Shown here piece after piece: positions 6,140 to 45,879 of a stretch of DNA of 64,000 nt. The notes beneath the pieces were generated by a model. That model had not been told where the DNA came from. It saw only the letters and a list, made by a program, of their open reading frames with translations, and did not search any database. Where the stretch lies: assembly GCA_031272365.1 (NCBI GenBank), contig JAISTX010000013.1:256-64255 (forward strand), read 5' to 3'. The position numbers and the translations under genes were made by a program. This DNA comes from Eubacteriales Family XIII. Incertae Sedis bacterium. Its GTDB lineage: Bacteria; Bacillota; Clostridia; Peptostreptococcales; Anaerovoracaceae. Positions within the stretch are counted from its first letter, which is position 1, and the number at the start of each line of letters is the position of its first letter.

Positions 6140-6236
6140 ACTTCCTCCGCTCTGTTAAAAAAGAATATCCCCATGTTCTCTGTCCGGTCACAACAGTATA
6201 GACCCTTTCGGGGAGATGTGCAATGGATTTCACAAA

Positions 6237-6252
6237 TGTTTCACGTGAAACA
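6237..6252. promoter_or_regulatory. parS site 1 (perfect palindrome TGTTTCACGTGAAACA)
   Basis: Matches the Firmicute parS consensus TGTTNCACGTGAAACA. Lies upstream of parA. Confidence 0.85.
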
Positions 6253-6261
6253 CCCGAAAAA

Positions 6262-6277
6262 TGTTTCACGTGAAACA
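6262..6277. promoter_or_regulatory. parS site 2 (identical TGTTTCACGTGAAACA)
   Basis: Second exact copy, 25 bp centre-to-centre from site 1. Confidence 0.85.
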
Positions 6278-6289
6278 TTTCAGGCCGGC

Positions 6290-7090
6290 CTACAGGGGCA
6301 CTTTCGACGGGACCCCCTCGCGGCGGGGGTATTTCACCGGCGTCCCCCCCTCCTTCCGCACGATGTACAGCGCGTGCGCCCGGCCAGGGAGCAGGTCGGG
6401 GTAGGCAAATATTTCCACGTCCCTCGCGGCACCAAGCATCTCCCGCGCGACCAGGCTGCCCTCGATCTCGCCCCCGGCGCGCACCGTCTTGTAGGCGAGG
6501 AGGTTGCCCCCGGTGCGCACGAGCGGCAGGCAGTACTCCAGCACGACGGGGAGCTGCGCGACCGCCCGGCACAGCGCGAGGTCGAAGCCCTCCCGCAGCC
6601 GGGCGTCGTGCCCCGCCGCCTCGGCGCGCGCGTGCAGCGTGCGCACGTTTCCCATCGAGAGGGCCTCCGCCGCCTGCGCCATGAAGTCCACGCGCTTCCC
6701 GAGCGAGTCGATCAGGAGGAATTCCTTCTCCGGGCAGAGCAGCGCGAGCGGCAGGCCCGGGAAGCCTGCGCCCGCCCCGACGTCCACGACGGCGCGCGCC
6801 CGCGAGAGCGCGGGCAGCCCCGCCGGCGCGAGGCTGTCCAGCAGCTGCAGCTCAGCGAACTCCACCGGCTCCGTGACCGCCGTCAGGTTGACCACCTCGT
6901 TGCGCTCCAGCACGAGCGCCATCAGCGCCATCAGCGCATCAGCGAAATGGCTGTCAAGCAATTTGATTGACATGTCTGCGGGGAGGCCCCCGCGCCGCGC
7001 AAGCGTGCGGAGCCCGCGCTCCAGGCGCGCCCTCGCCTCCCCCGTTTCCTCGCCGTCTTCTTTCCTGAACATGCCCCCATCATACCACAC
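6290..7090 (-). CDS. rsmG: 16S rRNA (guanine527-N7)-methyltransferase RsmG (GidB); start uncertain (7090 or 7072)
   Basis: SAM motif VVDVGAGAGFPGLPLAL, followed by LIDSLGKRVDF. Confidence 0.88.
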   Translation of the reverse strand: MWYDGGMFRKEDGEETGEARARLERGLRTLARRGGLPADMSIKLLDSHFADALMALMALVLERNEVVNLTAVTEPVEFAELQLLDSLAPAGLPALSRARAVVDVGAGAGFPGLPLALLCPEKEFLLIDSLGKRVDFMAQAAEALSMGNVRTLHARAEAAGHDARLREGFDLALCRAVAQLPVVLEYCLPLVRTGGNLLAYKTVRAGGEIEGSLVAREMLGAARDVEIFAYPDLLPGRAHALYIVRKEGGTPVKYPRREGVPSKVPL

Positions 7091-7151
7091 CTCGCCGCGC
7101 CAAAAGGGCCCCCCGGCCGGGAAGCCCCTTTTGTACGCCCGCCTGGCTTTC

Positions 7152-7919
7152 CTATACGTAGATGACCGTGAAGCCGGAGATGTCCACCGTCCCGGTCAGC
7201 ACCAGGCGCGGCGCGTCGGGGACGTGCTCCTGCGCGCCCTTCTCCTCGATGCTGGAGACCCTGTTTGTGAGCTCGTTGACGACGGCCCAGGTGCGCGGGA
7301 TGTAGAGCTCCATCGCGCCGGCGCTGACATGCACCTCGATCTCGGCCTGCCCCTGCTCGGGCGTGATCCTCGCGTTGTCGAAGAACACCTTCATCACGCC
7401 GCACTTCACCTCCAGGTAGCCCCGCACGAGGTTGTCGGTGTTGATGTACTTGACGGCGGAGCCGAACTCCGTCTTCGCGTAAAACTCGCTGCCGTCCGGG
7501 TCGTTGATGACGCGCTCGAAATCGTCCCCGCCCGCGCATTGGGCCGCCTGCCCGCCCGGCGGCATCTGCGCCCACCGGTGCTTCTGCGGCCGGTGGAAGA
7601 GGATCGAGAAGCCGATCGAGAGGAAGAGCGCGACGAAGAACAGCGCCCACGCGCTGATCCTCGAGGTGTCGAGGCCGAGCCCCTTGTAGACGTAGTAGCC
7701 GATGACGGTCAGGGGGAAGAAGATCCCGAACCACAGCCGCCTCGGCACGCACGCGATGAGGATGACGGCCATGAGGAAGAGGAAGAGGAGCGAGCCCGCG
7801 CCCCAGCCGAAGACCTCCACGTAGCCGAACTGGTTCAGGATGATGACCGCCGCCGCGAAGACGCAGAACACCCCCCAGAACACCCTCCAAAAAGATTTGT
7901 GCTTTTGCTTGTTTTCCAT
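7152..7919 (-). CDS. polytopic membrane protein (about 4 TM helices) with a beta-rich C-terminal domain, possibly LiaF/DUF2154-like
   Basis: Four hydrophobic segments in the N-terminal half. Immediately follows the LytTR gene on the same strand. The family assignment is a guess. Confidence 0.5.
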   Translation of the reverse strand: MENKQKHKSFWRVFWGVFCVFAAAVIILNQFGYVEVFGWGAGSLLFLFLMAVILIACVPRRLWFGIFFPLTVIGYYVYKGLGLDTSRISAWALFFVALFLSIGFSILFHRPQKHRWAQMPPGGQAAQCAGGDDFERVINDPDGSEFYAKTEFGSAVKYINTDNLVRGYLEVKCGVMKVFFDNARITPEQGQAEIEVHVSAGAMELYIPRTWAVVNELTNRVSSIEEKGAQEHVPDAPRLVLTGTVDISGFTVIYV

Positions 7920-7935
7920 AGTTTTCCCTCCTGCA

Positions 7936-8391
7936 TCAAAGGTCGAAGTCCATTTTGTCTTGCAACAATTTAAAATACTGCCTGCTGACGCTGATCTGCT
8001 TGTGCGTGCCGCGGAACCGGACGAGGCTCGGCCCCACGGGGTTCCTGTCGATCGAGTAGATCTTGCCCGTGCCGAGGATCGCGGACTTGCTCACGCGCAG
8101 GAACGAGTGCGGCAGCAGCTCCTCGAGCTCGTACAGGCGCAGGCGCGTCTCGAAGACCTCGGTCTCCGTGTGGGCGAAGGTGCGCCCGTTCGCGGATTCG
8201 AAGAAGAGCACGTCCGCGGGCTGCAGGTAGTACTCGGTGCCGCCCTTCATGAGCCGCAGCCTGCCCGCGCCCTCTCCCGCCGCGGCCTGCGCCGCCCTCT
8301 GGATGCGCGCGACCTTCTCGTCCACCTCGCGGCACCGGATCGTCAGCTCGGCCTCGTCCGCCTTTTCGTCAATTTCAATCCGAATCTTCAT
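7936..8391 (-). CDS. stand-alone LytTR-family DNA-binding protein (no receiver domain)
   Basis: C-terminal YYLQPADVLFFES...TFAHTE...LYELEELLPHSFLRVSKSAI... Confidence 0.75.
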   Translation of the reverse strand: MKIRIEIDEKADEAELTIRCREVDEKVARIQRAAQAAAGEGAGRLRLMKGGTEYYLQPADVLFFESANGRTFAHTETEVFETRLRLYELEELLPHSFLRVSKSAILGTGKIYSIDRNPVGPSLVRFRGTHKQISVSRQYFKLLQDKMDFDL

Positions 8392-8483
8392 GACAAGGGT
8401 AGCCTATCGCGCCCGCCGCCGGTTGTAAACCCCTTTTCGCCAACAGGTGAAGATTCGGGGGTGAGTGGTAGGGATTCGTGTTG

Positions 8484-8489
8484 TATAAT
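8484..8489 (+). promoter_or_regulatory. consensus -10 box TATAAT ending 7 nt before the mnmG ATG (candidate leaderless transcript)
   Basis: gttgTATAATgcggtacATG. No Shine-Dalgarno is visible and the -35 is weak. Confidence 0.4.
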
Positions 8490-8496
8490 GCGGTAC

Positions 8497-10509
8497 ATGG
8501 ACATTTTTGATGTGATCGTGGTGGGGGCGGGGCACGCCGGCTGCGAGGCGGCGCTCGCCGCCGCGCGGCTGGGCAAGCGCACGCTGCTCCTCACCATGCA
8601 AATCGAGTCGGTGGCGATGATGCCCTGCAACCCCTCGATCGGCGGCACGGGCAAGGGCCAGCTCGTGAAGGAGATCGACGCGCTCGGCGGGGAGATGGGC
8701 CTGCTCATCGACCGCGCCTTCATACAGAGCAAGATGCTCAACCGCAGCAAGGGCCCGGCGGTGCACTCGCCGCGCGCGCAGGCGGACAAGCAGAGGTACC
8801 ACGAGGAGATGCTCCGCGCGCTCGGGGCGCAGGGCGGCCTCGAGCTGCGCTGCGCCGAAGTCGTGGATTTGCTGCTGTCAAACGATTCTGTTGACACCGT
8901 TGGCGGCGTCGTGCTGCAGGGCGGCGAGGAGGTCCCCGGCCGCGCGGTGGTGCTGGCCACCGGCACCTACCTGAACGGGCTCGTGCACATCTCGGACCGC
9001 GCCTGGCCATCGGGCCCCTCCGGCCTCCGGGCCTCCGTGGGCTTCGCCGAAAACCTGAAGCGCCGGGGCTTCCCCCTGCGCAGGTTCAAGACGGGCACAC
9101 CGGCGCGGGTGCTCGCCCCCTCCCTCCGCTACGAGGAAATGACCGAGCAGCCCGGGGACGACGTGATCGAGCCGTTCTCCTATATAAATGAAGGAAAGTA
9201 CATCGGGGAGAACCGCGCCTCCTGCTGGATGACGTACACGAACCCAGAGGGCCACAAGATCGTCGCGGAAAACATCGGCAGGACGGCGCCCTACGGCGGG
9301 CACACGACGGGCACCGGGCCGCGCTACTGCCTATCGATCGAGGACAAGGTGTCGAGGTTTCCGGACCGCGAGCGGCACCAGCTGTTCCTCGAGCCGGAAG
9401 GCCTGTCAACCGAAGAAGTTTACATACAGGGGATGAGCACGAGCCTGCCGGAGGACATCCAGGAGGTTTTCTACCGCACGATCAAGGGGCTCGAGGACGC
9501 GGTCATTTCCAGATACGGCTACTCGATCGAGTACGACTGCATCGACCCCCTCTCGCTCCTGCCCTCCCTGGAGTCGAAAAAAATCCGCGGGCTTTTCTTC
9601 GCCGGCCAGGTGAACGGCACGAGCGGGTACGAGGAGGCGGCGGCTCAGGGGCTGGTCGCGGGCGTCAACGCGGCGAGGCTGACGGACGGCCTTGCGCCCT
9701 ACGTGCCGGACCGGTCAGAGGCGTACATCGGCGTGCTCATCGACGACCTCACGACAAAGGGGACGGAGGAGCCCTACCGCATCATGACGTCGAGAGCCGA
9801 GTTCCGCCTCGTGCTGAGGCAGGACAACGCGGACCTGCGCCTGACGAGGGCCGGCTACGCCCTCGGCCTCGCATCAGAGGAGCGGTTCCTGCGCGCCGAG
9901 GCAAAACGCAGGGCGATAGAGGCCGCTCTCGGGTACACGGTCTATAGCAACGGGCAGGGGGCAAATGCTTGCGCCGTTCGCTTGTCCTCGGTGCGGGCGA
10001 TACCAGACAGTTCCTTGCCTAAAACCCGAAACTCGCTGGCATTTTTGCCTTCCGAAACGGGCAGCTTGGAAGAGCCTCGGATGAAAGCGGAGCAGGAATC
10101 TGCCACCGCTCAAACAGTCGGGTTTTTTAACGGCAATGAACTGTGTGGTATCGCAGCCGCCCCTGCGGAGGCTCACTCTGCAAGCATCCGCCCCCTGCCC
10201 GTTGCCATAGACCTCCCCCTGCCGGAGGAGCTGAAGGGATCCGTCGCGCGCCAGGTGGAAATAGAAAGAAAGTACAAAGGCTACATCGAGAAGCAGAGGA
10301 GGCAGGTCGAGAAGTTCCGCAAGCTGGAAAGCAAGCGCCTGCCGCAGGACCTGGACTACGGGAGCATGGACGGCCTGCGCCTCGAGGCGCGGCAGAAGCT
10401 GTCGGCGCAAAGGCCCGCCTCGCTGGGCGCCGCCTCGCGCATCTCTGGCGTCTCCCCCGCGGACATCGCCGTGCTCATGGTGCAGCTGGCGAGGAGGGAG
10501 CGGTCCTGA
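8497..10509 (+). CDS. mnmG: tRNA uridine 5-carboxymethylaminomethyl modification enzyme MnmG (GidA), carrying an in-frame palindromic insert
   Basis: FAD motif DVIVVGAGHAGCEAA, C-terminal VEIERKYKGYI, ASRISGVSPADI. About 670 aa, compared with about 625-630 as I recall for the family. Confidence 0.9.
   Translation: MDIFDVIVVGAGHAGCEAALAAARLGKRTLLLTMQIESVAMMPCNPSIGGTGKGQLVKEIDALGGEMGLLIDRAFIQSKMLNRSKGPAVHSPRAQADKQRYHEEMLRALGAQGGLELRCAEVVDLLLSNDSVDTVGGVVLQGGEEVPGRAVVLATGTYLNGLVHISDRAWPSGPSGLRASVGFAENLKRRGFPLRRFKTGTPARVLAPSLRYEEMTEQPGDDVIEPFSYINEGKYIGENRASCWMTYTNPEGHKIVAENIGRTAPYGGHTTGTGPRYCLSIEDKVSRFPDRERHQLFLEPEGLSTEEVYIQGMSTSLPEDIQEVFYRTIKGLEDAVISRYGYSIEYDCIDPLSLLPSLESKKIRGLFFAGQVNGTSGYEEAAAQGLVAGVNAARLTDGLAPYVPDRSEAYIGVLIDDLTTKGTEEPYRIMTSRAEFRLVLRQDNADLRLTRAGYALGLASEERFLRAEAKRRAIEAALGYTVYSNGQGANACAVRLSSVRAIPDSSLPKTRNSLAFLPSETGSLEEPRMKAEQESATAQTVGFFNGNELCGIAAAPAEAHSASIRPLPVAIDLPLPEELKGSVARQVEIERKYKGYIEKQRRQVEKFRKLESKRLPQDLDYGSMDGLRLEARQKLSAQRPASLGAASRISGVSPADIAVLMVQLARRERS
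9939..10213. repeat. roughly 275-bp imperfect palindrome (MITE/RPE-like) embedded in frame in mnmG
   Basis: Terminal inverted repeats match 31/34 by hand count (ggtctatagcaacgggcagggggcaaatgcttgc versus the reverse complement of 10180-10213). Further inner arm matches: 9999-10019 vs 10132-10152 (19/21), and 10020-10029 vs 10118-10129. Confidence 0.7.
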
Positions 10510-10530
10510 CGCGGCGCGTCGCGCCCCGCC

Positions 10531-11154
10531 CTACCCCGGCAGGCGGCGCAGGTCGCTGAGCGAAAACCCCGCCTTCTCCGCCGCCTTCTTCCACCCCGCG
10601 TGCGCCGACTTGACGTAGAGGAACCGCGCGACGTTCGGGCGCACGTAGAGGTCCTCCCCGGTGGCCACCGTCGAGATCGAGACCGCGAACTCGCCGAGCG
10701 CCGACGCAACCGGCGCCATCGGCCTCTTTTCGAGGGGCATGAAGCCGGCCATGGGCCCCGCGCCGACGCAGACCGCCTGGCCCCAGAACAGGCCCGCCTT
10801 GTTGCAGAACAGCTTCACCGCCGCCACCGCGTTTTTGCACTGCTCCGGCTCGTAAAACCCGTTGTTGACCAGCGTGTAGACGACGGCGCCCTGCTTGGGG
10901 ACCACCTCCCCCACCACGGCCCTCTCCAGGAAGCGGATCAGGTGCGACGGCAGCCCGTCGATGTAGAGCGGGAACGCCAGCACCCACACGTCCGCGCCGG
11001 CGATCGCCGCGCGCGCCTCCGCGCCGCCCGCCCCGATCACGTGCAGCTGCGCGCGCTCGGCCTCCGGGGGCAGGTGCTCCGACAGCGCGCCGAGCAGCGT
11101 CCCGCTGATGCTCCTTTTGGTCTTCGGGCTCCCGTTGATCAACACGATCTTCAT
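10531..11154 (-). CDS. flavodoxin-like / NAD(P)H-dependent FMN reductase family protein
   Basis: MKIVLINGSPK... with an alternating beta-alpha pattern. ATGA overlap with the upstream gene. Confidence 0.65.
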   Translation of the reverse strand: MKIVLINGSPKTKRSISGTLLGALSEHLPPEAERAQLHVIGAGGAEARAAIAGADVWVLAFPLYIDGLPSHLIRFLERAVVGEVVPKQGAVVYTLVNNGFYEPEQCKNAVAAVKLFCNKAGLFWGQAVCVGAGPMAGFMPLEKRPMAPVASALGEFAVSISTVATGEDLYVRPNVARFLYVKSAHAGWKKAAEKAGFSLSDLRRLPG

Positions 11155-11669
11155 TCCGACGCCTCCCTCCGCAGCTCGTCCGCCGCCTCCTGCGCGCTCT
11201 CGAAAAACAGCACCTCGTGGGATTTGGCGCACAGGTTCACCGCGTTCGCGCGGACGAGGCCCTGCGCCGCCGCGCGCCCCTCCCCGTCGCTGGCCGAACC
11301 GTAGAACAGCACCTTCAGGTGGAACCGCCCCTTGAACCTGGGGGCGTGGTGCGTCTCCCCCTTGATGACCGTGAAAAACGGCAGCATATACCCGATGCCC
11401 CGGTCGAGCACGGACTTGACGTCCGCGGAATACCCGCCGAACACGAGGCGGCTGACGATCACGAACGTCCCGCACTGCCCGAGGAGCGGCGCGAACGCCT
11501 GGCCCCGGTCCGGGATGACGCAGACGCCCGGCGTCTTCAGCCAGCACCCGAAGCAGCCGACGCAGGGCTTCACCGCCGGCGAGGCGCTGAAGAGCACCAC
11601 CTTCCTGCTCTCCGAGAGGGAGGCCGGGAGCGGCCCGACCAGGTCATGCAAAATCAATCGTTCTTTCAT
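11151..11669 (-). CDS. flavodoxin-like oxidoreductase family protein (Cys-rich CVGCFGCW motif)
   Basis: VVLFSASPAVKPCVGCFGCWLKTPGVCV. The ATG overlaps the mnmE stop (ATGA at 11666-11669). Confidence 0.6.
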   Translation of the reverse strand: MKERLILHDLVGPLPASLSESRKVVLFSASPAVKPCVGCFGCWLKTPGVCVIPDRGQAFAPLLGQCGTFVIVSRLVFGGYSADVKSVLDRGIGYMLPFFTVIKGETHHAPRFKGRFHLKVLFYGSASDGEGRAAAQGLVRANAVNLCAKSHEVLFFESAQEAADELRREASE

Positions 11670-13066
11670 TTTCCTACACAAAACTCCTCGAATACCCTGT
11701 TTAGAACATCGTCCGAGACCGACTCCCCGATCAGCTCCCCGAGCGCGTCGTATGCCGCGCGCATGTTCACCTCCGCGAACTCCGGCGCCTCGCCGAGCGC
11801 GAGCACCTCCCGGCCCTCCTCCGTCTCCGCGAGCGCCCGCGAAAGCAGCTCCGCCTGCCAGGCCCGCGTGACGAGCGCGCCCGTCCCCGCCTGGGCGCCG
11901 GCGCGCGCCGCGCGCTCGATCGCGTCCTCAATCGCCCGGACGAGCTCCCCCGGGCGGAGCGCGGAGCCGAGCGCCTTGTCCGCGAACGGCGCGAGCGCCT
12001 CTGCCTCCACGAGGGAGAACGCCTGCGGCAGGTCCTGCTTGTTGAGGACCAGCAGCGTCGCCTTCGCCGGGTCAAGCGAGGCGGCGATCGCCGCGTCCTC
12101 CCCCGACAGCGGCCGGCTGCCGTCGAGCACGAACAGCGCCATGTCCGCCCTGCCGTAGACGGCCCGGCTCTTCTCGATGCCCAGCGCCTCGACCTCGCCC
12201 GCCGCCTCGCGGATGCCCGCCGTGTCCGACAGCAGCACGGGGAGGCCCCGTACGTTCAGCCAGATCTCCAGCGCGTCCCGCGTCGTGCCCGGCACGGCCG
12301 TGACGATGGCCGCGTTCTCCCGCGCGAGCGCGTTGAACAGCGAGGACTTGCCGACGTTCGGCGCCCCGATGATGCACACGCGCAGGCCGTCGCGCACGAT
12401 GCGGCCCTCCCCGGCGGTGGCGAGCAGGGAGCGCAGGATGGACGTGATCTGCTCCGTGGACTCCCGGAAAAGCGTAGGCGTCGGCGGCAGGCCGGCCTCG
12501 TCGTCGAACGCCTCCGGGTAGTCGATGCGCGCCGTGATCTCGGTCAGGACCGCGAGCAGGAGCGCCCGCGCCTCGCGGATGGGCCCCGAAAGGCGCCCCT
12601 CCGCCTGGTCCTGCGCCGCCCGGTACGCCCGCTCCGTGCCCGCGCGGATCAGGTCGATGACCGCGCCCGCCTGCACGAGGTCGATGCGCCCCGAGAGGAA
12701 GGCCCTCTTCGTGAACTCGCCCGGCGCCGCCGGCGCCGCCCCCGCCGCGAAGCAGAGCTCCAGGATCCGCCGGAGCGGCACCGGCCCGCCGTGGCACTGG
12801 ATCTCCGCCACGTCCTCGCCCGTGTAGGAGCGGGGGCCCGGCATCACCACGGCCAGCGCCTCGTCCACCCGCTCCCCCGTCGAGGGGTCCACCACGTGCC
12901 CGTACCGCATGCGGCGGCCCGGGGCCCAGGCCCCGCCCGCGCCGCCGCGGGCGGGAACGAAAACGCGCGCCAGTACCTCCTGTGCGCGCGCCCCGCTCAA
13001 CCGTACAATCCCAATGCCCCCCTCGCCGGGCGCCGTCGAAATCGCAGCGATCGTTTCTTCTTCCAT
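11666..13066 (-). CDS. mnmE: tRNA modification GTPase MnmE (TrmE)
   Basis: IAAISTAPGEGGIGIVRLSG, G-domain GAPNVGKSSLFN, DTAG, C-terminal CVGK. Confidence 0.92.
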   Translation of the reverse strand: MEEETIAAISTAPGEGGIGIVRLSGARAQEVLARVFVPARGGAGGAWAPGRRMRYGHVVDPSTGERVDEALAVVMPGPRSYTGEDVAEIQCHGGPVPLRRILELCFAAGAAPAAPGEFTKRAFLSGRIDLVQAGAVIDLIRAGTERAYRAAQDQAEGRLSGPIREARALLLAVLTEITARIDYPEAFDDEAGLPPTPTLFRESTEQITSILRSLLATAGEGRIVRDGLRVCIIGAPNVGKSSLFNALARENAAIVTAVPGTTRDALEIWLNVRGLPVLLSDTAGIREAAGEVEALGIEKSRAVYGRADMALFVLDGSRPLSGEDAAIAASLDPAKATLLVLNKQDLPQAFSLVEAEALAPFADKALGSALRPGELVRAIEDAIERAARAGAQAGTGALVTRAWQAELLSRALAETEEGREVLALGEAPEFAEVNMRAAYDALGELIGESVSDDVLNRVFEEFCVGK

Positions 13067-26977: not shown

Positions 26978-27946
26978 ATGAACTCCATTGAAATATGTGC
27001 CGGGGCCGGAGGGCAGGCGCTGGGTCTTGAGCAGGCGGGGTTTGAGCACCTTGCCTTGGTGGAAATCGACCCGTCCGCGTGCGCGACCTTGCGGGAAAAC
27101 CGCCCTTCATGGAACATCATCGAAGGGGATGTCAAAGAAGTCTCTTTGGGAAGCTATGGCGGCATAGACCTGCTCGCCGGCGGCGTCCCCTGCCCCCCCT
27201 TTTCCGTCGCGGGCAAGCAGCTCGGCGGCGACGACGACCGCGACCTGTTCCCCGAGATGATCCGGCTGGCCAGGGAATGCAGCCCGAAAGCAGTGATGAT
27301 CGAAAACGTGAAGGGGATATTTGACCCAAAATTCGATTCCTACCGGGAAAGCATCCTGGCGCAGTTCGAGGCCATGGGATACCGCTGTTTTTGGGAATTG
27401 GTCGAGGCGAACCACTATGGCGTGCCCCAGCAGAGGACGCGCGCCATCCTCGTCGCGCTCAAAGCCGAGTACGCCGGGTCTTTTGCATGGCCGCTTGGCG
27501 TCTTGGCCCCGCCCCCGACCGTCGGGGATCTTCTTTTCCCGGAAATGGCTGCGGCCGGCTGGGAAGGCGCCGAGGAGTGGAGGCGTCGCGCGGACGGCGT
27601 CGCGCCAACGCTGGTCGGGGGGAGCAAAAAGCACGGCGGGGCGGATCTCGGGCCGACGCGCTCAAGAAAGGCCTGGGAGAAGCTTGGCGTGGATGGGGCC
27701 GGTTTGGCGGACCAGCCGCCGCAGAAGGGCTTCAGCGGCTTGCCGCGCCTGACCGTGGCCATGGCGGCGCTTCTCCAGGGCTTCCCGCCGGACTGGGTTT
27801 TTTCCGGGAAGAAGACGCCGGCATACAGGCAGGTGGGCAACGCTTTCCCGCCCCCCGTGGCAAAGGCGGTCGGCCAGGCGATCGCGTCGGCATTGGCGGC
27901 GGGCGAAGGCAAGGGCGAGAAGCAGGAAGCGAAAGTCGCCATATGA
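26978..27946 (+). CDS. DNA (cytosine-5)-methyltransferase
   Basis: Motif I EICAGAGGQALG, motif IV GGVPCPPFS, motif VI ENVKG, motif VIII QQRTRAILV, motif X GNAFPPPVA. Confidence 0.92.
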   Translation: MNSIEICAGAGGQALGLEQAGFEHLALVEIDPSACATLRENRPSWNIIEGDVKEVSLGSYGGIDLLAGGVPCPPFSVAGKQLGGDDDRDLFPEMIRLARECSPKAVMIENVKGIFDPKFDSYRESILAQFEAMGYRCFWELVEANHYGVPQQRTRAILVALKAEYAGSFAWPLGVLAPPPTVGDLLFPEMAAAGWEGAEEWRRRADGVAPTLVGGSKKHGGADLGPTRSRKAWEKLGVDGAGLADQPPQKGFSGLPRLTVAMAALLQGFPPDWVFSGKKTPAYRQVGNAFPPPVAKAVGQAIASALAAGEGKGEKQEAKVAI

Positions 27947-35899: not shown

Positions 35900-36481
35900 A
35901 TGGAAACGCCGAAACGCGCCTATGTTTTGATACGCTCGAAGCGGCGGACGATGTCGCTGCGCGTGACGGAGGAGGGGCTCGTCGTGCGCGCGCCGCTGCG
36001 GCTGCCCGCCGCCGAGATCGACCGCTTCGTCGCGTCGAAGGAGCGCTGGATCGCGGCGCGGGCCAGCGAGATCGAGGCGCTCCGGAAGGAGCGGGCGGCG
36101 TTTGAGGGCATGCTCGGCGGCGCGGAGGCGCACGCGCGCTTTGCGGAGGAGTGCAAGGCGCGGGCGAAGCGGGAGATCCCCGCGCGCGCGTGGGCGCTTG
36201 CGGCGGCCATGGGCGTGCGGCCGGTCTCCGTCCGCGTCGGGTCGGCGCGCACGCGGTGGGGCAGCTGCAACGCGAAGGGCTGCATCAATTTTTCCTGGCG
36301 GATCATCTTCGCCGACCGCGACACGATCGACTACGTCATCATCCACGAGCTCGCGCACCTCAAACATCTCAACCACAGCAAGGCCTTCTGGGGCGTCGTC
36401 GCGCGGTATATGCCGGACTATGGCGTGCAGCGGGCGAAGCTGCGGGAGCTCCACCGGAGGCTGCAGCGTGAAAACTGGTAG
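35900..36481 (+). CDS. YgjP/DUF45-type (M48-like) metal-dependent hydrolase
   Basis: HELAHLKHLNHSKAFW zinc motif. Confidence 0.8.
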   Translation: METPKRAYVLIRSKRRTMSLRVTEEGLVVRAPLRLPAAEIDRFVASKERWIAARASEIEALRKERAAFEGMLGGAEAHARFAEECKARAKREIPARAWALAAAMGVRPVSVRVGSARTRWGSCNAKGCINFSWRIIFADRDTIDYVIIHELAHLKHLNHSKAFWGVVARYMPDYGVQRAKLRELHRRLQRENW

Positions 36482-45821: not shown

Positions 45822-45879
45822 TACAGCGAATATAGCGATTTTAAGGAAATTTTTTTAGAAAATCGCTATTTTCGCTGTA
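45822..45879. promoter_or_regulatory. 21-bp inverted repeat (1 mismatch) with a 16-nt AT-rich spacer, in a divergent promoter region
   Basis: tacagcgaatatagcgatttt-N16-aaaatcgctattttcgctgta. Each arm carries two AGCGA motifs, and a fifth TTTTCGCTG follows at 45888-45896. Confidence 0.6.

Follow-up and report, generated by a model that had tools for sequence, protein, structure and literature searches.

Protein-coding palindromic repeats, initially described as something peculiar to Rickettsia, have since been found sporadically in Proteobacteria and cyanobacteria. We describe here a 275-bp palindromic segment that lies in frame inside the tRNA-modification gene mnmG (gidA), at positions 9939-10213 of a 64,000-nt stretch of contig JAISTX010000013.1 (this whole stretch is hereafter the window), from a termite-gut-type Clostridiales Family XIII metagenome-assembled genome (MAG). 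Very probably, what lies here is one copy of a mobile repeat that is palindromic, small, and non-autonomous and that resembles both the miniature transposable elements with inverted repeats (MITEs) and the Rickettsia palindromic elements (RPEs). It represents a new family of MITE/RPE-like protein-coding palindromic repeat, though the kind itself is known. In-frame palindromic repeats are documented for the RPEs (Ogata et al., 2000, 2002, as summarised in PMC10969869 and PMC2229807), and likewise for the ERIC, Correia, and QMITE repeats (PMC10969869, PMC2229807, PMC5896051).

Closest in behavior are the RPEs, which share with the mnmG element one long stem-loop, a single stop-free frame, an in-frame location in conserved housekeeping genes, and an encoded peptide that is tolerated by the host protein. 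The two differ in host (a high-GC Clostridium here versus Rickettsia), in their terminal repeats (34 bp versus about 12 bp), and in number (three copies known versus dozens). Moreover, the element is GC-rich (GC content of 0.585), whereas RPEs are AT-rich. At 275 bp, it is also about twice the length of the RPEs (105-146 bp; PMC2229807), for which a target-site duplication is similarly unclear (given as '?' in Table 1 of PMC2229807). Thus, while the element is RPE-like in its working, it is not a member of the RPE family, from which it is set apart by host, length, and composition rather than by sequence comparison.

The MITE-type repeats, which include ERIC/IRU, the 107-bp Correia repeat, YPAL, and QMITE1/2 of Coxiella (PMC2229807, PMC5896051), are likewise small, non-autonomous, and bounded by terminal inverted repeats. 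ERIC, Correia, YPAL, and QMITE further resemble the element in having a transcript that forms a long stem-loop, occasional in-frame fusions to open reading frames (ORFs), and filled and empty sites among relatives; however, in the element we detected neither a target-site duplication nor a terminal TA, no partner insertion sequence (IS) was identified, and the element is not AT-rich. As for the features that define a MITE, the element is 275 bp long without a transposase of its own, has terminal inverted repeats matching at 31 of 34 positions, and occurs as dispersed copies with filled and empty sites. Classical MITEs, unlike the element, are mostly intergenic and of high copy number, and the pneumococcal BOX and SPRITE repeats are intergenic as well. 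With BOX, RUP, and SPRITE (PMC10969869, PMC2229807), the element shares a Firmicute host and the character of a small hairpin-forming repeat. RUP is intergenic and 107 bp long, with 9-bp terminal repeats and TA targets (PMC2229807), and we saw no sequence relationship between these pneumococcal repeats and the element. REP and BIME palindromes are 20-40 bp long, have GTAG or CGTC heads, and lie outside genes (PMC3733652); an assignment to these was rejected, as the element is 275 bp long, sits inside genes, and starts with GGTC. In our literature searches, we came across no account of such elements from Clostridia.

The limits of the element (given without strand) are set by its outer inverted repeats, which are the left arm GGTCTATAGCAACGGGCAGGGGGCAAATGCTTGC (9939-9972) and the right arm GCAAGCATCCGCCCCCTGCCCGTTGCCATAGACC (10180-10213), each 34 nt long and 91% complementary to the other; these and the inner parts are given here on the plus strand. 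Nested within, a 23-nt inner left arm (9997-10019) is 91% complementary to the inner right arm (10132-10154), and an innermost stem is formed in the predicted fold by AAAACCCGA (10021-10029) and TCGGGTTTT (10118-10126), which together enclose a non-palindromic centre of about 70 nt. Each side of this innermost stem is part of a block conserved between copies, these being AAAACCCGAAACTCGC (10021-10036, coding for PKTRNSLA) on the left and CGCTCAAACAGTCGGGTTTTTT (10108-10129, coding for AQTVGFF) on the right, while the central core (10037-10107) is variable and is predicted to form small local hairpins. As RNA, the plus strand folds into a single long hairpin at -156.8 kcal/mol (z = -9.2), and the minus strand folds at -170.4 kcal/mol (z = -11.8), with the DNA folding at -88 kcal/mol (z = -9.5). 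In fact, the element is the top inverted repeat (up to 500 nt) across the whole 64-kb window, and a 24-nt terminal-repeat pattern with 3 mismatches allowed located its two arms and nothing else window-wide, for a chance expectation of 0.00. A first-pass annotation of this DNA, made from the letters alone, had already described the ends as inverted repeats matching at 31/34, the inner arm pairing, a third arm pair around 10118-10129, and a folding of the whole segment into one hairpin, and had set a comparison with shuffled controls as the check. Here, the same 31/34 was computed for the ends, the inner pairing came to 21/23, the third pair appeared in the fold as the innermost stem, and the z-scores of about -9 to -12 for RNA and DNA agree with one hairpin, with 0 of 200 shuffled sequences folding as stably. 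Of the remaining inverted repeats of the window, those at 27536-27810 and at 35990-36139 were folded too and rejected as comparable elements (z = -2.7 and -0.1, respectively).

The host gene extends from 8488 to 10509 on the plus strand and encodes 673 residues from MRYMD, with the Pfam domains GIDA and SAM_GIDA_C, while the NCBI model (P0001) starts at 8497 and has 670 residues. Translation of the element (9940-10212, plus strand) gives MnmG residues 485-575 (VYSNGQGANACAV...IRPLPVAID). As proposed in the first-pass annotation, the segment is lower in GC than the remaining mnmG (0.585 versus 0.667) and is read through without a stop; the GC content at third codon positions (GC3) deviates further (0.60 versus 0.90). 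On both strands, frame 2 is the only one free of stops, with the other four frames having 2-4 each. A 178-aa ORF antisense to mnmG (9874-10410, minus strand) is not a gene, and exists because the palindrome is also stop-free in the mirror frame and the DNA is GC-rich. Pfam searches with the sense-frame and antisense mirror-frame peptides of the element, and with the element peptides of the two further copies described below, gave no match, and a promoter and terminator scan of the element gave no signal.

A related element lies in frame inside rsmG of a sister MAG (GCA_031272745.1), on contig JAISTF010000197.1 (L006) at about 12337-12575, where blastn returns colinear pieces. Local alignment of the window element with this copy gave z = 12.5, a score that none of 300 shuffles reached, and the copy itself folds as a long hairpin (z = -3.7). 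RsmG from L006 is 343 aa long, with its GidB domain split by the insertion of about 80 aa that contains the related palindrome, while in the window the rsmG (gidB) gene (6290-7090, minus strand) has a contiguous GidB domain and represents an empty site for this insertion. The AAAACCCGAAACTCGC block recurs almost unchanged in the rsmG copy, where a C-G pair has become T-A in a compensatory manner, and CGCTCAAACAGTCGG, within the 10108-10129 block, is identical there. The rsmG copy is shorter, and the core (10037-10107) is largely missing from it. Its insertion site is a loop just upstream of the glycine-rich VVDVGxGAGFPG, which we take to be the S-adenosylmethionine-binding motif I of RsmG.

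Another copy was revealed by a HMMER search with the 91-aa peptide against 1.84 billion representative proteins, the one real match besides the window MnmG itself being an AddA protein (P0123; residues 912-991, 46% identity, E = 2e-7). This AddA is about 81 residues longer than that of Bacillus subtilis, and the excess falls exactly between the helicase and nuclease blocks. Four other matches from the exhaustive HMMER search (P0121, P0122, P0124, and P0125) were rejected as element copies, since these are tandem-repeat proteins. The AddA copy (MDR1796569.1, from a 46-kb contig) comes 498 accessions after the window MnmG (MDR1796071.1, from a 64.9-kb contig), and both are labelled Clostridiales Family XIII bacterium; very probably, it belongs to the same MAG as the window mnmG, as the accession proximity fits one length-sorted MAG. 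The copies in mnmG, AddA, and rsmG are all read in the same frame and have R.SS.R.I in common. Moreover, AQTVGF..G is invariant in all three, while PKTRNSLA is found in the window and AddA copies only. Otherwise the copies are highly diverged, with 36-46% amino acid identity and a mean column identity of 70% in the MAFFT nucleotide alignment. The segment is thus not unique, which is how the copy count suggested in the first-pass annotation turned out. Because these related copies sit in two other housekeeping genes, we consider the element to be selfish DNA of the Rickettsia type.

In mnmG itself, the polarity of the change is shown by empty and filled sites. At 670-673 aa, the window MnmG is longer than most homologues listed (roughly 620-640 aa), and its spacing from DNADLRL to VEIxxKY is 144 aa, compared with 98 aa in most homologues, in which the LLRRPE subdomain is included. 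Two relatives (P0003 and P0004), which are 76% and 75% identical to the window MnmG outside the linker, have neither the element nor the LLRRPE subdomain; here, the DNADLRL-to-EIxxKY spacing is 51 aa, and the linker runs as AKRRAVE-xGDLxG-LPxEL. Over these empty sites, the window mnmG has a net gain of 279 bp. When the window protein is aligned with Escherichia coli MnmG, the aligned blocks are 106 residues apart in the former and 62 in the latter, with the element supplying 91 of the 106. As for the Pfam domain GIDA_C_1st (PF21680), only profile positions 72-96 are matched in the window MnmG, below the curated cut-off, and this remnant (residues 580-604) is downstream of the element. Most of the GIDA_C_1st linker subdomain, LLRRPE motif included, is lost in P0003, P0004, P0005, P0107, and the window MnmG, from which it would evidently appear that MnmG tolerates the loss. 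Judged by its lack of a Pfam match and its absence from P0003 and P0004, the element peptide is not the native GIDA_C_1st subdomain.

Since P0003 and P0004 are without both the element and LLRRPE, the subdomain was lost earlier in the clade and the element was added afterwards. The element is an insertion and not a lineage-specific domain; its foreign codon usage (GC3), the lack of Pfam and Rfam matches, the disordered product, the near-neutral dN/dS given below, and the other copies all point the same way. The first-pass annotation was right about the extra length of about 40 aa and the missing LLRRPE-type segment, though its view that the element peptide had replaced the linker does not stand against these relatives, and the empty sites in P0003 and P0004 also speak against a segment conserved in all related MnmG proteins. 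Its suggestion of a loop, in turn, is matched by an AlphaFold model of the window MnmG (67 aligned sequences, mean pLDDT of 82), in which residues 487-569 have a pLDDT below 50 and appear as coil between intact helices at 464-482 and 580-595. The rest of the model is confident, with a target-normalised TM-score of 0.87 to the solved MnmG structure 2ZXH. The product of the element is hence predicted to be a disordered loop that leaves the MnmG fold intact.

The comparison of the window element with the L006 rsmG copy gave a dN/dS (nonsynonymous to synonymous rate) ratio of about 0.86 over 76 codons, as against 0.13 for mnmG. With this near-neutral value, there is no protein-level constraint on the element. 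In the same pair, base pairs changed on both sides number 17, versus 1-4 in slid controls, and 90% of the paired cells are retained in pairing, versus about 41% in slid controls, in a test that compares two sequences only and takes its structure from one of the two. Where peptide blocks are conserved, these coincide with the inner stems of the DNA. Near-neutral dN/dS and paired stem changes together mean that the element evolves as a palindromic nucleic acid and not as a protein.

How the element came to be in mnmG may be pictured as follows. In an ancestor of the Clostridiales Family XIII MAG, it would have inserted into mnmG where this gene encodes the short linker between two helices. It would have survived there because it was read in its one stop-free frame and because the MnmG fold is left undisturbed at this position by some 91 additional disordered residues, and would since then have evolved as DNA and not as protein. 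Insertion could well be random, with retention inside genes only where the frame is stop-free and the loop permissive. The three sites (the inter-helix linker of MnmG, the loop of RsmG, and the helicase-nuclease linker of AddA) fit such a permissive-loop view. The effect on MnmG is presumably neutral or mildly harmful, and it is plausible that the mRNA hairpin (-157 kcal/mol) slows ribosomes or attracts RNase III, with a putative effect on translation or decay. Because no target-site duplication, partner transposase, or further copies were found, the mode of mobility is something we infer. If the element is indeed a mobile repeat, its movement may be due to a transposase that works in trans on its terminal repeats of 34 bp, and we give this about an even chance of being the actual route. 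Alternatively, the element could have been captured during double-strand-break repair or have followed another RPE-like route, and with no target-site duplication established for RPEs either (PMC2229807), break-repair capture is a live alternative.

Several observations count against a mobile repeat. No target-site duplication (a direct repeat of at least 4 nt, sought with the boundaries moved by as much as 8 nt in each direction) was found, the flanks being ACAC and TCCC. The 275 bp amount to 3n+2, and the length actually inserted must therefore be other than the distance from repeat to repeat; here, the net gain of 279 bp would fit a decayed 4-bp target-site duplication. No IS with ends matching that of the element (GGTCTATAGCAACGGGCAGGGGGC) is present in the 64-kb window. 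The AddA copy is known as a protein only, with its palindromy deduced, and its placement in the same MAG is drawn from accession proximity. Furthermore, the known copies number only three and are very diverged, and thus do not stem from a burst in recent times. Nucleotide collections (genome, metagenome, viral, plasmid, and phage) yielded chance matches only or none. The genome collection scan with TATRGCAACGGGCAGGGGGC gave 3 single matches in Proteobacteria-type and other MAGs, which were dismissed as chance for want of an inverted partner, and the metagenome collection scan with CAAACAGTCGG N{28,48} CTGCGGAGGCT gave 2 chance matches, in a collection that holds neither the source contig nor L006. 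Word-indexed protein searches with the element peptides (by alignment and concatenation), which are unsuited to short low-complexity queries, failed to return even those copies already known. An nhmmer search over the window, L004-L006, and L014-L017 gave no further clear copy, the sole other match being a weak one at L006 10394-10427 (E = 0.012).

Set against the mobile repeat are three other explanations, of which the least improbable is a nucleic-acid structure kept by selection, whether an mRNA element (an RNase III site or ribosome pause) that serves mnmG stability or translation, or a DNA cruciform or protein-binding site, with the repeat origin being secondary. The great stability of the hairpin agrees with this, as do the paired changes that have kept the stem between the window and L006 copies, and an outer 34-bp repeat that is still 91% intact despite the age of the copies. 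However, the arms would covary just as much if the copies had arisen from palindromic master elements that differ from one another, and the paired-change test used a structure taken from one of its own two sequences. Moreover, Rfam 15 gave no match up to E = 1 in 9000-11000, a gathering-threshold Rfam scan of the whole window returned one tRNA only and nothing relevant, and neither promoter nor terminator signals were seen. The structured RNA that the first-pass annotation had offered as its alternative is further disfavored by the placing of the copies in three unrelated coding regions, whose host genes have no common regulation. We thus hold a selected structure to be improbable.

Less probable still is an ordinary lineage-specific insertion, in which a functional loop or mini-domain of MnmG would be encoded by DNA that is palindromic by coincidence, and this reading is already largely refuted. 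While the frame has been kept open, the AQTVGFFNG and PKTRNSLA blocks are conserved between copies, and the MnmG linker of relatives accepts many different insertions, the same sequence recurs in the unrelated MnmG, AddA, and RsmG, and close orthologues do without it. The dN/dS and GC3 values, the predicted disorder, and the lack of a Pfam match are also at odds with a functional domain, and the conserved blocks are the very parts that make up the paired inner DNA stems. It is barely credible that the palindrome arose artificially, for instance as a chimeric inverted duplication, when the metagenome was amplified or assembled. The source is a MAG, and snap-back chimeras do make inverted repeats, but the arms are imperfect, with indels and 76% identity over 98 nt, the centre is unique, and the frame is preserved. 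Diverged relatives occur, moreover, in independent assemblies and genes, and mnmG from another sample holds a second, unrelated in-frame palindrome (see below). What the first-pass annotation had chiefly proposed, a selfish in-frame palindrome analogous to RPEs, is the explanation that agrees with the empty sites, the other copies, and folding beyond that of shuffled sequences.

Taken as a mobile repeat, the element brings the protein-coding palindrome phenomenon into uncultured high-GC Firmicutes, where at least two unrelated families are in frame in mnmG of related organisms (275 bp and 231 bp), the 275-bp family being found in rsmG and addA as well. For annotation, such elements account for proteins of inflated length, for Pfam domains that are split, and for mirror ORFs on the other strand, and for protein evolution, they represent selfish DNA that supplies ready-made disordered loops. 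The empty and filled sites can also be used for working out how the element moves. A bolder proposition, which we find improbable, is that long palindromes of several unrelated families reside in high-GC gut Clostridia (Family XIII MAGs), where they insert preferentially in coding regions, with no target-site duplication and by an undescribed mechanism, the hairpins being actively maintained by selection or by ongoing mobility out of genes. If true, Firmicutes would have their own equivalent of the Rickettsia system, and housekeeping proteins a general way of gaining new surface loops.

The second palindrome is found in the mnmG that encodes P0004 (L004; contig Ga0209629_10077857), where it is in frame at 1360-1590 in a loop of the N-terminal domain. 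It is 231 bp long (77 codons), with 39-nt arms (1368-1406 and 1543-1581) that are 92% complementary. The RNA folds at -141 kcal/mol (z = -16.4), and the GC content is 0.50, compared with 0.65 in the rest of the gene. This palindrome is absent from P0003 (87.5% identical to P0004), from the window mnmG, and from P0002. No target-site duplication was found for it, nor any second copy in the sequences compared. With this, in-frame palindromes seem to recur in this clade.

Further insertions are found in the mnmG genes of other relatives. The closest orthologue, P0002 on contig L006, is 81% identical outside the linker, and at 10395-10440 its gene has an insert of 17 aa (TPSEARSANAVPTASEARS) made of two copies of CTTCGGAGGCTCGCTCCG, in the same N-terminal-domain loop as the L004 palindrome. 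An 18-mer in this insert (CGGAGGCTCGCTCCGCAA) recurs without change in the right arm of the rsmG element, which lies about 2.1 kb downstream on this contig, and the element family may have left the insert behind as a fragment or a footprint. The P0002 linker (L006 11484-11625) has 45 residues more than those of short-linker relatives, at the very site of the window element, and has a 14-mer (CTTGCTCCGCTCGC) in common with the rsmG element on the same contig, a match that dinucleotide shuffles reached 15 times in 1000 and control segments once in 71. Colinear alignment of this linker to the window element was not significant (z = 1.0 and 2.4), and the extra residues may represent an orthologous copy that has decayed or may have arisen independently. 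In P0029 (L014 6128-6283), a 52-aa insertion occurs later in the same linker; here, GCTCGCAGCCGAGCGATTCCC pairs with GGGAATCCTCGGTGCGAGC, the hairpin evidence is weak (z = -2.3), and the likeness to the window element is limited to a 15-nt stretch with 14 of 15 bases identical.

As for the gene neighborhood, rsmG and mnmE are on the opposite strand in the window, to either side of mnmG (6290-13066), while on L006 and L014 the order is mnmE, mnmG, rsmG, parA, and parB on one strand, with a minus-strand GDSL-lipase gene between mnmE and mnmG on L006. Just downstream of the window rsmG (6234-6280) are two adjacent perfect copies of TGTTTCACGTGAAACA, which we take to be the parS consensus, and this would presumably fit an origin-proximal region. 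Farther along, an ORF resembling a C5 cytosine methyltransferase (26978-27946) is overlapped by another with an HNH-like CxxC...H...CxxC region (up to 28524), and, on visual inspection of the translations, these two ORFs resemble a restriction-modification module. Lastly, the window contains two short strong palindromes unrelated to the element, one at 1396-1443 with 24-nt arms and no spacer, and the other at 45822-45879 with 21-nt arms that are 95% complementary and a 16-nt loop.

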